Under the pieces are notes generated by a model. It made no database searches and was not told where the DNA came from. It worked only from the letters and a program-made list of their open reading frames with translations. Positions 48,050-55,797 of a stretch of DNA of 64,000 nucleotides are shown in pieces. A program made the position numbers and the translations under genes. The DNA is from Armatimonadota bacterium. GTDB lineage: Bacteria; Armatimonadota; SYMT01. Positions within the stretch are counted from its first letter, which is position 1; every line of letters starts with the position of its first letter. The stretch spans positions 24,234-88,233 of the forward strand of contig JBKBRF010000014.1 of the NCBI GenBank assembly GCA_046292385.1, given 5' to 3'.

Positions 48050-48100
48050 GCCTCGGACTGAAGTCGAGGCTACAGAAAGCGAAGCCCGCCTGCGCGGGCT
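48050..48100. repeat. REP-like double hairpin
   Basis: GCCTCGGACTGAAGTCGAGGC and AGCCCGCCTGCGCGGGCT. Confidence 0.6.
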
Positions 48101-48455
48101 GAGTTCTGCCGACCCCAGCACCACGCTGTACTTACGTCCCGCCCCCCAGTTTCCTGTGGTCCGAGGACTGCTCTACCCTCTCGTCGCCCGCCTCGTGATC
48201 GGCGTTTTCGCCGTGACAGTCGATACAGAGCAGCGCGCGGCGGTGGTGGCGCCCGGTGGCGTCTACGAATGGTGCCGCGGTCAGCCCTCGTCGCTTGTAT
48301 ACCCCGCAGCCATCGCAGAAGCCCTTGATGCTGAATCTGGAGCGGTCGGCTGGTTCCACGGCTTCAGGGATCTCCCGGCACGCAGGTGCTCTCGAGGAGG
48401 ACCTCCGGGGCCACCGTTCTCCGGTATCGGAGAGCCGCCCGCCGTCCTCATCGCC

Positions 48456-51743: not shown

Positions 51744-51881
51744 GGAGTGACGCGCTTGCGCGGCCCTTCTCTCGGTGTGAAGTCGGCTCCGCCAAGCACG
51801 GCCGCCAGGCAGGAGCCGAATGCTCGAAAGCAGGTGCCAGTACGCTGGGGAGGCCGCGCAAGCGCGTCACTCCGGCAGTAC
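51744..51881. repeat. Inverted pair of GGAGTGACGCGCTTGCGCGGCC REP-like repeats (copies 2 and 3)
   Basis: Identical cores at 51744-51765 (+) and 51852-51873 (-). Confidence 0.85.
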
Positions 51882-52034
51882 TCGGTGGCGTCTCCTGGCA
51901 CTCCGCGGGAGCGCTCCGCACCCGCATTTCACTGCCACGTCACACGGGAACGCGAAAAGGCCGGGCGCCACCCGGAAGCATACCACGCATCCGGAAGCGG
52001 CACCCGGCCTGCAGAGCCGGTGAGAGCCGGGACC

Positions 52035-53153
52035 CTACTTGATGCCGGCCTTCTCGATCGCCTCGCGCATGGCGGTCTCGTTGAAGCCGACGCCGCGCCA
52101 CAGGATCGTGCCGTCCGCCCCGATCAGGTAGTTGGTCGGGTAGGCCTGCACGCCGTAGGCCTTGCCGAGGGTGTACTTGTCGCGGTCGCCGCCCATCACG
52201 ATCGGGAACGACCAGCTGTTGTCCTTGATGTATTTCTGGACCGTCTCCAGCTTGTCGGAGGCGTTCACGGCGACCAGGCCCAGGCCCTTGTCCTTCAGCT
52301 CGGTGTAGATCTTCTGGAGGTGAGGAAACTCCTCACGGCAGGCGCCTCAGCCATAGAACCAGAAGTTGATCACCACCGCCTTCTTGCCCTGGAGCGCCTG
52401 CTCCAGGCTGAGCTGCTGGCCGTCCGGGGTGGGGAGCTGGAAGCTCGGCGCCTTGCTGCCGACCTTCAACAGGCTGTCCTCGAAGTCGGGCTGCTTGAAC
52501 TCTTCGAAGCCCGCCGGGACCTTGAACGCGAACTGCTGCGCGGTCAGCGGCGCGTCGAGCTTCAGGTTCTTGATCCAGATGCGCTGGGTCAGCTTCTGCT
52601 CGCCGTTGCCGAACGTCATCTCCGCCCCTTCCGGCACGCCGGCAGCGGTGAAGAAGAGCTTCTGGGTCTGGCCGCCCGCGCCGGAAACCTGCACTACCTC
52701 GTAGCTCTTGGCGCCGACCTTCTGCGTCCCCAGGTGCTTCGTCTCGCCCCCGGCTCCGAGGGAGTCCGGGTTGAAGAACGCCGCGCCGATCGGGCCCGCA
52801 GCGCTGCCGATCATGCCGCCCTTCTCGTCCGCAGGCTGCTTGAGGTACTGCTTCTGGGAGTCGAGCGTGATGTAGACTTCTTTCCCGGTCGACTGAAAAC
52901 TCTGGCTGCCTTCGGGCGTCTTCAGGGTCAGCTTGCCGAGGTTCGGCTTCAGAAGCTGCACCGTGCCGGTGAGCTCCTGCTTCTCCCCGTCGCTGTTGAT
53001 GTTGATCTGGAGATCCCCGGTCAGGCTCTTCGCCTTCTTCAGGCTCTCCCGCGCCTTCGCCAGGAGCGCGTCGGATTTCGAGTCCGCGTGGGCCGCCGCC
53101 ACCGCCACCAGGGCGGCCGCGCAGGCCAGCGCGGAGATGGGTCGCAAACGCAT
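52035..53153 (-). CDS. Probable selenoprotein: signal peptide + LolA-like domain + TlpA-like thioredoxin (UxxC); in-frame TGA at 52347-52349
   Basis: INFWFYG-TGA-GACREEFPHL continues in frame to YGVQAYPTNYLI; SECIS-like hairpin 52320-52336. Confidence 0.88.
52320..52336 (-). promoter_or_regulatory. Putative bacterial SECIS hairpin
   Basis: GTGAGGA-GTT-TCCTCAC, 10 nt 3' of UGA. Confidence 0.75.
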
Positions 53154-53216
53154 GGCATACCTCCGATGGGGCCGTGGAGCTCCGGCGAGGCCGCCGGATT
53201 CCGGACCTCGGTCACG

Positions 53217-54368
53217 CTACTTTACCCCGAGCTTCTCAATCGCATCCCGCAGGGTCTTCTCCGTGGCGGGAGAGAAGCCGACTCCCCGCCACGCGACCTT
53301 TCCTTCCGAATCGAGCAGGTAGTTGGTGGGGTAGGCGCGCACTCCGTACGCCTTCCCCAGCGTGTACTGCTCCCCCTTGCCGCCCATCACGATCGGGAAG
53401 GTGAACTTCCCTTCCTGCACGTACTTCCGGATCGTCTCCTCGCTGTCGCCCCGGTTGACGGCGATCAGCTCGAGACCCCGGTCCTTCAACTCTTCGTAGA
53501 TCTTCTGGAGGTGCGGAAACTCCGCACGGCAGGCGCCTCAGCCGTAGAACCAGAAGTTGATCAGGACCGCCTTCTTCTCTTTGAGCGCGCTTTCCAGGCT
53601 CAGTTGCCCGCCGCCCGGTTGGGGCAGCTGGAACCGTGGCGCCTCTTTGCCTACCGGGATCAGCTCCGCCGTGTAGTCCGGCGCCACCGGCTGCGCGATG
53701 ACATATTTCTGGTAGCCCTCCGGAATCTCCCGCACCAGCTCTTCCGGCTTCGCCGGCTCGTTCAGGCGCACTTCCGTGAGCCAGCCGGAGTTGCGCAGCA
53801 TCTGGTCGCCGGTGCGGAAGAGGAGCTCCACCCCGCGCAGCACTCCCGCTTCGTCGAAGAAGAAGCTCCGCTCCTGCGGCGCCCGCTCCGCCCGGAGCTG
53901 CAGCACTTCGTAGGTCCGGCCGTCCACCTCCTTCCGGCCGCCGTAGCTCAGCGTGCCGGCCTCCAGCTCCGCCTTCAGGTTCAAGAAGGCGTGCATCGGC
54001 ATGAACGTCCCACCGAAGCCGACGTTACGCCCCTGGGGATCGGCGGCCGATTCCAGGAACTGCTTCTGCGACGTCATCAGCCGGAGGAGCTGCTTTCCGT
54101 CCGAGACGACGGTCTGGACGGGGGCGCCCTCGAAGAGCACCGTGTAGCGTGCCAGGTTCGGGCGCTGGATGACCCCCTTGACCCGGTACTCGAATTCTCG
54201 ACCGCCGCCGCCGCGCGTGATCTTCATCTCACCGCGCAGCGTCTGGATCTTCTCCGCCGCCGCCAGGGCTCGCGCCTTCAGCGCCTCCGCCTGCTCGTCG
54301 GCGCGCGCCGCCAGGCCCAGCGCCAGCACGCCCAGCGCCGCCAGCAGTCCCGCATGCCGTCTCCTCAT
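53217..54368 (-). CDS. Probable selenoprotein paralog: signal peptide + LolA-like + TlpA-like thioredoxin (UxxC); in-frame TGA at 53538-53540
   Basis: INFWFYG-TGA-GACRAEFPHL continues in frame to YGVRAYPTNYLL; RPNLAR and VSDGK LolA-like motifs. Confidence 0.88.
53511..53527 (-). promoter_or_regulatory. Putative bacterial SECIS hairpin
   Basis: GTGCGGA-GTT-TCCGCAC, 10 nt 3' of UGA; compensatory pair relative to the paralog. Confidence 0.75.
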
Positions 54369-54606
54369 GCCGCCGCTCCTTTCCCGCCGCCGCCCGCGCG
54401 TCGGCCGTATCACTCTGTTGCCGATCCGGCACCGCGATCCCTCTCCTCGGCTCGCCGGCGGCGCGCTCCCGGAGAGGCACGCTTCAGGACGCCGGGGAAC
54501 AGGTATCCTTTAGAGGACGGCGACCTCGCGCGCGTTACGCCTGCACGGAGCGCCGATGGCCGGACCCATTTGCTTAGACGCACCGATTAGACGGAAGGAC
54601 CACCCC

Positions 54607-55797
54607 ATGTCGCTCCGCAGGCTTCAACCGTTCGCGGTGCTCTTCCTCGCGCTGGGAGCGCTGCTCCCCGGTCGCGCGCTGCAGGAGACCCCGCCGCCTC
54701 GCCCGGGTGAAGGTCACCTGGTCCAGTGGGAAGGCTGGAGCTTCCGCTGGTCGGTCCGCCCGCGCGAGGGGATCGTGCTCAGCGACGTGTCGTTCCAGGG
54801 CCGCAAGGTCTTAAAGCACGCCTCCATCGTGGAGATCTTCGTGCCGTACGACCAGGGCCAGCCGCGTCCGGAAGACTCGCTGGACGGGATGGGCGTCAAC
54901 CTGGTCGAGCTGCTCCCCGGAAAGGACTGCATCCCCGGCACGATCTGCCGCATGCTCAATGCCGAGGGCAAGGAAGAGGGGAAGCGGCTGGTGGGGCTGC
55001 ACGAGGAATACACCGGCCTGAACTACCTGGGCGACCAGGGCCGCTCCTACGGCAAGATGCTGGTGCTCTGGGGCAGCTCCCGGCTGGGGAAGTACACCTA
55101 CTTTCTCCGGTGGCGGTTCAGCAGCGACGGCAGCATGCACCCGGACGTGGGCCTCACCGGCCGCCTGGAGCATACCCGCCCCGGAACCACCACGCCGCAC
55201 GGCACGCAGGTGGGGCGCGAATCGAACGGTGAGCCGGTCTTCGCGCCGTCGCACGTCCACAATTTCTACTACCGCCTCGACTTCGACATCGACGGCGCCG
55301 CGGACGACGTGGTGGAGGAATCGAGCCACAAGCAGGACCAGCCCGGCCGGAGCCTCACCGCCCAGGACCAGTGGACGCCGGTGCTCCGGGAGGGCGGCCG
55401 CAGCCTCGACTCGGACGCGTTCCGCACCTGGCGGGTGGTCGACAAGAATTCGAAGAACGCCCTCGGACACCGGCGCTCCTACGAGCTGATGCCGGGCGGC
55501 AACGGCCGGTTCCGCGGCGCGGCGGAGGAGGCGTTCACCCAGGCCGACCTGTGGGTGACGCGCTACCGCCCCAACGAATTCCCGCTCAGCTCCGAGGTCC
55601 CGGTCCCCACCCGCCTCGCGCTGCCGCTCTTCACCAACCGGGAGCCGCTGGCGGAGCAGGACGTGGTGGTCTGGTACACGATGTCGGTCCACCATATCCC
55701 CCGCACGGAAGACTGGCCCGCCATGCCGGTCGTCTGGGCCGGCTTCAACCTGATGCCGAGAGACTTCCTGGACGGCAGCCCTTTGCGGCCGCAGTAG
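54607..55797 (+). CDS. Copper amine oxidase-like protein (catalytic domain only, secreted)
   Basis: W.GWSF, REGIVL, EIFVPY, HVHNFYYRLDFDIDG, LWVTRY, DVVVWY, HHIPRTEDWPAMP. Confidence 0.88.
   Translation: MSLRRLQPFAVLFLALGALLPGRALQETPPPRPGEGHLVQWEGWSFRWSVRPREGIVLSDVSFQGRKVLKHASIVEIFVPYDQGQPRPEDSLDGMGVNLVELLPGKDCIPGTICRMLNAEGKEEGKRLVGLHEEYTGLNYLGDQGRSYGKMLVLWGSSRLGKYTYFLRWRFSSDGSMHPDVGLTGRLEHTRPGTTTPHGTQVGRESNGEPVFAPSHVHNFYYRLDFDIDGAADDVVEESSHKQDQPGRSLTAQDQWTPVLREGGRSLDSDAFRTWRVVDKNSKNALGHRRSYELMPGGNGRFRGAAEEAFTQADLWVTRYRPNEFPLSSEVPVPTRLALPLFTNREPLAEQDVVVWYTMSVHHIPRTEDWPAMPVVWAGFNLMPRDFLDGSPLRPQ

Follow-up and report, generated by a model that had tools for sequence, protein, structure and literature searches.

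Two tandem genes of an Armatimonadota bacterium, here called A and B, raise the question of whether an in-frame TGA ends their proteins or is read as selenocysteine (Sec). They lie in a stretch of 64,000 nucleotides (nt) of contig JBKBRF010000014.1 (positions 24,234 to 88,233)—the window, as this whole stretch is called below—and share the same orientation, with a gap of 63 nt between them and gene B upstream of gene A on the coding strand. Under translation table 11, one TGA interrupts each of them. It is very probable that both encode Sec-containing proteins built of a LolA-fold domain and a redoxin domain, and they are regarded here as genuine, unannotated selenoproteins because of the Sec machinery of the genome, a column occupied by Sec or Cys in homologues, a conserved hairpin behind the UGA, and the predicted structure.

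A and B share 43% identity from end to end. The UGA stands in the context VVINFWFYG-U-GACREEFPHLQ in A and VLINFWFYG-U-GACRAEFPHLQ in B, and the active-site motif in both is U-G-A-C, with U replacing the first Cys of the thioredoxin-type CxxC. Past the TGA, both frames run through AYPTNYL to a TAG; in thioredoxin folds, the conserved Pro of this loop has the cis-Pro role. The initial annotation had placed a TGA at the same position of both paralogs, at the first Cys of the TlpA/ResA motif, and had followed the frame through the cis-Pro loop (YPTNY) to a normal stop, a reading that both minus-strand frames and the homologues bear out. The Pfam models Redoxin (PF08534) and AhpC-TSA (PF00578) match across the UGA, at residues 230–362 of A and 239–376 of B. 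Their scores are 82.5 bits (3.3e-23) and 81.9 bits (4.7e-23) for A, and 70.9 bits (1.3e-19) and 81.1 bits (8.5e-23) for B, which exceed the gathering cut-offs of 26.6 (Redoxin) and 26 (AhpC-TSA).

The state of the active-site column in homologues is the next point. An alignment of 14 full-length homologues (A1; six with TGA and eight with Cys) holds only C or U at this column, and the second Cys (C272), P339, and T340 are nearly invariant. At E ≤ 1e-40, the profile made from A1 finds matches in 161 genomes out of a sample of 401 from this phylum. Among the 150 matches listed, 35 hold one TGA, 2 hold one TAG, and 113 hold neither; the TGA falls at the active-site column in 34 of the 35, and the remaining one (G400:C23) is a Cys form with its TGA upstream of its start. 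With five further redoxin paralogues of the bacterium's own genome added to these 34 homologue rows, the distinct TGA forms at this column number 39, from 30 genomes; the distinct Cys forms number 26. Duplicate loci are counted once in both sets, and the Cys set omits two redoxin paralogues without CxxC at the column (L024 and L049). Whether this column is TGA or Cys in homologues had been left to be checked by the initial annotation: it is one or the other, and never Trp. Sec and Cys forms interleave on a tree of 52 full-length homologues (31 and 21, respectively), with at least eight changes of state, at least three of them forced by well-supported branches. In one case, L133 (G002:C469:15678-18041), a tandem two-domain pair combines a Cys copy (CPPC) with a Sec copy (U-T-A-C), and the two are sisters on the tree (SH-aLRT, the Shimodaira–Hasegawa-like approximate likelihood ratio test, 97), a placement suggestive of a recent switch between Sec and Cys following duplication. 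The one named homologue from NCBI (P0015), which is 34% identical, bears the label 'Abitibacteriaceae bacterium'. A search of genome contigs with A1 gave, among the matches listed, generic redoxins, the best of them with 31–34% identity and over the redoxin part only.

These data also bear on a first alternative, namely that the genes are pseudogenes or carry sequencing errors, or that the proteins truly end at the TGA as LolA-like products of 268 and 276 residues. Public data agree with such an end on their face, as the window's own product is held in the public collection as a 268-amino acid (aa) protein ending in NFWFYG, and six further public proteins of 261–284 aa end exactly at NFWF(Y/H/N)(G/S/T). 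Since all of them end exactly at the UGA motif, however, these short proteins are truncated calls; A and B themselves, and at least six relatives in public data, have thus been annotated as truncated LolA-like proteins. Moreover, the downstream frame is open, the redoxin match crosses the stop, and the TGA keeps its column in 39 genes of 30 genomes with the protein conserved downstream of it. Contigs of other metagenome runs bridge the TGAs of both genes (X4 record 26 and X2 record 21), the former spanning that of gene A with 0 differences and the latter with none listed at the TGA; all four runs compared consist of contigs, whose uncovered parts carry no meaning. A TGC or TGG in place of the TGA, which the initial annotation had seen as a possible refutation, is therefore not what independent data hold. 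Finally, a product ending at the UGA would break off within strand 1 of the redoxin fold in the model of A, so it would not be a clean 'LolA-only' protein. Taken as a whole, an end at the TGA is highly improbable.

The capacity for Sec decoding is present in the genome (7.04 Mb, 98.45% complete). All of selA, selB, selC, and selD were found above curated cut-offs, as the initial annotation had proposed to check (selB 367.5 bits, selA 577.9, selD 362.3, and tRNA-Sec 66.6). The genes for SelA, SelD, and tRNA-Sec are adjacent at C11:87438-90122 (loci L009, L010, and L012), and selB lies apart from them at C16:4680-6554. As it carries one in-frame TGA, selD probably encodes a selenoprotein itself. 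TGA is not reassigned genome-wide; it is the normal stop of the phosphoenolpyruvate (PEP) carboxylase and PBP1 genes in the window, and an internal in-frame TGA occurs in none of the five neighbouring Pfam-supported genes.

Behind each UGA lies a hairpin of the selenocysteine insertion sequence (SECIS) type. The initial annotation had described a hairpin of 7 base pairs (bp) with a GUU loop 10 nt past each UGA, and a compensatory pair between the copies. Both features are there: the stems are perfect, and they differ by one pair, A-U in gene A and C-G in gene B (GUGAGGA/UCCUCAC versus GUGCGGA/UCCGCAC). The codons that contain the hairpin specify R-(E/A)-E-F-P-H, a peptide that the SECIS visibly constrains. 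According to PMC13188914 (section 5), the bacterial SECIS (bSECIS) model has a loop of 3–9 nt, a stem of 4–16 bp, a G in the first two loop positions, 16–37 nt from UGA to loop, and a minimum free energy (MFE) of −7.5 kcal/mol or lower. The hairpins of A and B agree with this model throughout, with 17 nt from UGA to loop; among the 39 TGA forms, a G in the first two loop positions is found in 39 and an MFE of −7.5 kcal/mol or lower in 38.

The evidence for this element is the comparison of genes, made on a gap-free alignment of the 39 TGA forms. Standard pairs fill 94.1% of the 273 pair cells, and both-sided changes are seen in four of the seven pairs (28 cells). The covariation score is 0.327, compared with 0.118 in shuffles, and it was reached by none of 500 of them; when the 3' arm is slid by 1–3 columns, only 37–66% of cells pair. 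The synonymous third base of the Pro codon pairs with the second base of the E/A codon in all 39 forms, in the combinations GAG-CCU (24), GCG-CCG (12), AAG-CCU (1), CGG-CCC (1), and UUG-CCA (1). Elsewhere in the stem, changes of R to H or N on the 5' side accompany CAC-to-CAU on the 3' side, and CGU-to-CGC accompanies a change of His to Arg (CAC to CGC). On average, 6.59 of the 7 pairs are kept in TGA forms versus 2.96 in the Cys forms, where even near-identical peptides retain only five (CRAEFPHL and CRQEFPHL) or four (CRTEFPHL and CRKEFPHL). The family constitutes a clean natural experiment on the SECIS, in which all four Pro codons are in use, each matched to its pairing partner.

On this evidence has to be judged the proposal that the hairpin is a by-product of the peptide R-E/A-E-F-P-H and that the UGA is read otherwise, by near-cognate Trp or Cys insertion or under a reassigned code, with neither SelB nor SECIS. 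The stem does lie wholly in conserved codons, and its energy is not exceptional relative to shuffles. However, selection on the protein cannot explain the pairing, because Cys forms of nearly the same peptide keep only four to five pairs and because synonymous bases covary; in addition, any other route for the UGA has to contend with TGA as a stop in neighbouring genes and with a complete Sec machinery. Such a by-product is hardly credible.

Several points nevertheless weigh against a selenoprotein of the kind proposed. Windows of 63 nt around the hairpins fold no better than dinucleotide shuffles (z 0.18 and 0.64), so the support for the SECIS comes from the gene-to-gene comparison and not from energy; in the G+C-rich DNA found here, folding energy alone proves nothing. 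As the arms sit in a conserved peptide motif, the pairing partly reflects shared ancestry, and the pair counts are made per sequence and not per event, related genomes not being independent. Rfam, run over the whole window at gathering thresholds, gave no match at the hairpins. Although an RNA run (X10) yielded contigs across the UGA in gene A, this is not proof of transcription. Selenium incorporation, export, and activity of A and B are all predictions, and a carrier function of the N-terminal domain is only a structural analogy, because this domain scores below the LolA family cut-offs (see below). Lastly, no conserved neighbour offers itself as redox partner or client, since none recurs beyond close relatives at 28 homologue loci (53 of their 66 flanking open reading frames were compared to Pfam, the 13 left out being short frames and both of L140, a near-copy of L139).

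The C-terminal domain of these probable selenoproteins can be placed with some precision. Its active site is a thioredoxin-type W-x-x-U-x-x-C at the start of a helix, and in the AlphaFold model of A, U269-x-x-C272 precedes helix 270-289. Structures matched by VIA-align to residues 228-372 of A include 3gl3_A (DsbE; Z 22.3), 2f9s_A (ResA; Z 21.2), and 1jfu_A (TlpA; Z 16.2). The best matches in NCBIfam are ResA, StoA, DsbE, a ResA-like WAxxUGC selenoprotein, and TlpA. The cut-offs are missed by ResA (NF002854, 88.6 vs 170), DsbE (TIGR00385, 53.2 vs 123.15), TlpA (NF047696, 30.5 vs 230), and StoA (NF041202, 61.9 vs 210). As all scores are far below the cut-offs, neither protein belongs to any curated family.

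The N-terminal domain is better recognized by fold than by sequence. The approximately 220 N-terminal residues of A give only weak LolA and DUF2092 signals, with 29.7 bits against a cut-off of 112 for TIGR00547 and 14.8 against 23.6 for PF03548, and the corresponding part of B matches neither model. When the N-terminal domain of A is used to search the own genome, B is recovered (31% identity, E 7.9e-25). For A, AlphaFold2 was run on the 14-row alignment and gave a model with a mean predicted local distance difference test (pLDDT) value of 90.6, with values below 50 at residues 1–3 and 10–22, and a predicted template modelling score (pTM) of 0.68. According to this model, the N-terminal half takes a LolA-like fold, in which 11 strands form an unclosed barrel carrying a helical insert, and the C-terminal half takes a ResA/DsbE/TlpA fold, so that the structural check suggested by the initial annotation came out in its favour. 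For residues 23-221, VIA-align returns LolA structures from Bacteroides uniformis (4mxt, Z 17.4), Xanthomonas (8orn_C, 16.9), Francisella (8v1k_B, 16.6), Escherichia coli (6f3z_B, 16.0), and Porphyromonas (15.5), with a root-mean-square deviation (rmsd) of 3.0–3.5 Å over 175–180 residues, and Foldseek finds 2w7q (E 1.5e-12).

The Pfam LolA model gave 14 hits in a sample of 101 genomes from the phylum, confined to 13 genomes. At least four of these hits lie inside fusion genes (G003:C15, G017:C33, G062:C47, and G076:C1), and three more are located approximately 0.2–2.5 kb from one. In the own genome, PF03548 gave nothing at E ≤ 0.01, a weak negative, as its control was matched in only 5 of 14 genomes. 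The scarcity of the LolA model in the phylum is only a hint, because its controls show limited reach. The free LolA-like proteins beside a fusion gene in G048, G035, and G018 may represent a recurring pairing.

Both N-termini show a basic n-region, a hydrophobic stretch, and AHA or ARA before an Asp, and a comparable hydrophobic start is found in 14 of 14 rows of the full-length alignment. Since signal-peptide-like starts occur in A, B, and every aligned homologue, export is likely, although the signal peptide has been read by eye. The start of gene B is placed at the ATG at 54366-54368, with AAGGAG ahead of it and a signal-peptide-like N-terminus behind; a longer form from a GTG at 54413 is possible but less likely. 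A scan of 51800-54700 for promoters and terminators found none.

A mechanism can be proposed on this basis, although its functional steps are much less certain than the identity of A and B as Sec-containing LolA-redoxin proteins. Through SelB-dependent insertion, Sec would come to occupy the nucleophilic site of a redoxin of the TlpA/ResA type that is joined to a LolA-fold domain, a step that the data above support. The proteins would then be exported by the Sec secretion pathway via a cleavable AXA-type signal peptide, and would act in the envelope as selenol/thiol-disulfide reductases. TlpA, ResA, and CcmG proteins are re-reduced by a transporter of the CcdA/DsbD type, and the genome holds one DsbD_TM/CcdA gene (93.1 bits; C84:7763-8395), a single membrane electron transporter that might re-reduce A and B. 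The role of the LolA-fold domain is probably to bring in or bind a client that is hydrophobic or lipidated, or else to tether the enzyme. Under limiting selenium or Sec-tRNA, termination at the UGA would leave products of 268 and 276 residues without the active site.

Three readings of the function can be weighed. In the first, A and B are ordinary housekeeping reductases that serve the maturation of cytochrome c or the assembly of copper centres, in the role of ResA, CcmG, or TlpA, with the LolA domain as a mere spacer or anchor that binds no ligand. Their best NCBIfam and structural matches (ResA, DsbE, CcmG, and TlpA) and the presence of a CcdA-type transporter are in line with this role. 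However, the scores stay far below the ResA, DsbE, and TlpA cut-offs, no gene for cytochrome maturation or for Sco lies next to A and B or to their relatives at the 28 homologue loci, and the N-terminal domain is conserved across the phylum. In addition, as the genome counts eight UxxC redoxin genes with a SECIS of this type, specialised roles are likely. A housekeeping role is accordingly an unlikely one.

In the second, they are peroxidases acting on hydrophobic peroxides, with a LolA-type cavity presenting lipid hydroperoxides to the selenol in the manner of glutathione peroxidases or peroxiredoxins. AhpC-TSA scores as well as Redoxin in Pfam, and the JGI name of Cys forms is 'peroxiredoxin/outer membrane lipoprotein-sorting protein'. 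Peroxiredoxins carry the peroxidatic signature P-x-x-x-T/S-x-x-C, however, and this signature is absent here: the residues before U are V-I-N-F-W-F-Y-G, so that position −7 lacks Pro and position −3 lacks Thr/Ser. In PMC13188914, Sec is described as typical of peroxidases, and PxxxTxxU is cited. Given a thioredoxin-type active site, and nearest structures that are disulfide reductases scoring above peroxiredoxins, a peroxidase is a decidedly improbable reading.

In the third, the LolA-fold half would hold the acyl chains of lipoproteins or oxidised membrane lipid, and the Sec redoxin half would act on them. This is a speculative idea, with low odds. If true, these proteins would form an envelope redox module directed at lipoproteins or lipids, and the family could stand in for, or add redox chemistry to, the lipoprotein-carrier step of these bacteria.

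Features of genes A and B, with related loci elsewhere (contig and locus handles as used in this analysis)
Feature	Position	Strand	Remarks
Gene A	52035..53153	-	372 codons; predicted LolA-fold domain and Sec-redoxin; TAG stop
Gene B	53217..54368	-	383 codons; predicted LolA-fold domain and Sec-redoxin; TAG stop
Gene A Sec codon UGA (predicted)	52347..52349	-	codon 269, first position of UxxC
Gene B Sec codon UGA (predicted)	53538..53540	-	codon 277, first position of UxxC
Gene A SECIS hairpin	52320..52336	-	GUGAGGA-GUU-UCCUCAC, -8.6 kcal/mol, 10 nt after UGA
Gene B SECIS hairpin	53511..53527	-	GUGCGGA-GUU-UCCGCAC, -9.9 kcal/mol, 10 nt after UGA
Gene A redoxin (TlpA/ResA/DsbE-like) domain	52038..52472	-	residues 228-372; Pfam and VIA-align
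Gene B redoxin (TlpA/ResA-like) domain	53220..53654	-	residues 239-383; Pfam
Gene A LolA-fold domain (model)	52491..53087	-	residues 23-221, 11 strands and helical insert
Gene B LolA-fold domain (predicted)	53679..54299	-	approximately residues 24-230; alignment with gene A
Gene A putative signal peptide	53085..53153	-	MRLRPISALACAAALVAVAAAHA, then DSK; read from sequence
Gene B putative signal peptide	54300..54368	-	MRRRHAGLLAALGVLALGLAARA, then DEQ; read from sequence
Shine-Dalgarno-like GGAGG	53160..53164	-	6 nt before gene A ATG; sequence only
Shine-Dalgarno-like AAGGAG	54376..54381	-	7 nt before gene B ATG; sequence only
Stand-alone LolA frames	G048:C85:48402-48872, G035:C3:19981-20454, G018:C52:22101-22523		204-249 aa frames
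Further UGA redoxin genes of own genome	C4:280343-280744, C17:7066-7515, C22:72639-73049		loci L022, L023, and L025
Further UGA redoxin genes of own genome	C18:43623-44024, C6:130686-131126, C13:85008-85391		loci L027, L028, and L031

Among the 14 redoxin matches of the own genome, eight are UxxC redoxin genes of this SECIS type. Besides A and B, six others (loci L022, L023, L025, L027, L028, and L031) hold a TGA at the same active-site column and a hairpin of the same type; they look like unannotated selenoproteins, and their open frames of 172–837 aa point to differing N-terminal parts. With eight such genes, the selenoproteome of this genome is under-called. A covariance model of the hairpin (R1) finds only its eight own-genome training loci (150 of 3425 candidates scored).

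The neighbours of A and B in the window—a copper amine oxidase domain protein, RsmE, and PEP carboxylase—are unrelated to them. The first, at 54556-55797 (+), is a divergent 413-aa copper amine oxidase enzyme domain (E 1.5e-65) with a signal-peptide-like start, and comprises the catalytic domain only. The Rfam scan of the whole window returned one tRNA and a borderline CRISPR-DR28 match at 48078-48101 (+), which scores 35.4 bits where the gathering score is 35 (E 0.012) and is probably due to chance. In another genome, a Cys form at L132:730-1650 (G001:C15) stands beside an opposite-strand frame for signal peptidase II (LspA, Peptidase_A8, E 1.7e-33), a single case that is not seen in the other loci.

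None of these findings overturns current knowledge. ResA, CcmG (DsbE), TlpA, and StoA are Cys-containing extracytoplasmic thiol-disulfide reductases. A and B share the fold of ResA, DsbE, and TlpA (Z 16–22, rmsd 1.5–2.5 Å over 130–139 residues), and they share with ResA and DsbE 30–32% identity, the position of the CxxC, and the YPT loop. However, they would carry Sec in place of the first Cys, fall below every family cut-off, and hold a predicted signal peptide and a LolA-fold domain with no membrane anchor or lipobox. Two curated families of long or multi-part redoxin selenoproteins, NF041054 ('ResA-like WAxxUGC motif-containing protein', long form) and NF053656 ('TUGYCR motif thioredoxin fold (seleno)protein'), likewise have Sec in a redoxin fold. 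Similarity to both is limited to the redoxin part, with 41.4 and 37.5 bits against a cut-off of 300 for NF041054, whose motif is UGC and not UGAC, and with 19.3 bits against 100 for NF053656. With LolA itself, the lipoprotein chaperone of the periplasm (1ua8 and 6f3z from E. coli, 2w7q from Pseudomonas aeruginosa, and 4mxt from B. uniformis), compared by fold, the model of A shares 11 strands and the helical insert (Z 15.5–17.4); unlike LolA, it has only 14–19% identity, lies below the family cut-offs, and is fused to a redoxin.

The closest relatives are the Cys forms of the same two-domain architecture, which have the same length, both domains, and 34–46% identity to A and B. Some of them match Pfam PF03548 (LolA) and PF09865 together with redoxin families. 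They contain CPPC or CGPC in place of U-G-A-C, and the SECIS hairpin is not conserved in them. Full-length Cys forms bear the automatic public names 'peroxiredoxin/outer membrane lipoprotein-sorting protein' and 'redoxin domain-containing protein', and a literature search for a characterised Cys form of the fusion found none.

As for the kind of selenoprotein, the initial annotation had spoken of a possibly undescribed envelope redox or lipoprotein-maturation module, a term that has to be qualified. Neither these proteins nor any LolA-redoxin fusion came up in the literature search, 'LolA' has no occurrence in the 2026 review PMC13188914, and a search for Armatimonadota with selenocysteine, judged from its listing, turned up nothing on this family. 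On the other hand, the architecture is auto-named in public data, and TlpA/peroxiredoxin-like selenoproteins with UxxC are already catalogued as a predicted kind; UxxC thiol-disulfide oxidoreductases are, in fact, the commonest predicted class of selenoproteins. A and B belong to this kind because they share its Sec-bearing domain (PF00578/PF08534/PF13905) and its UxxC motif; a SECIS right after the UGA and the existence of Cys homologues are further features in common. Unlike the catalogued proteins, compared here apart from the reviews' example accessions, A and B add an N-terminal LolA-fold domain of approximately 200 residues. This fusion of a LolA fold with a TlpA-type reductase is uncharacterised, and the client it acts on could point to a novel use for the fold of lipoprotein carriers.

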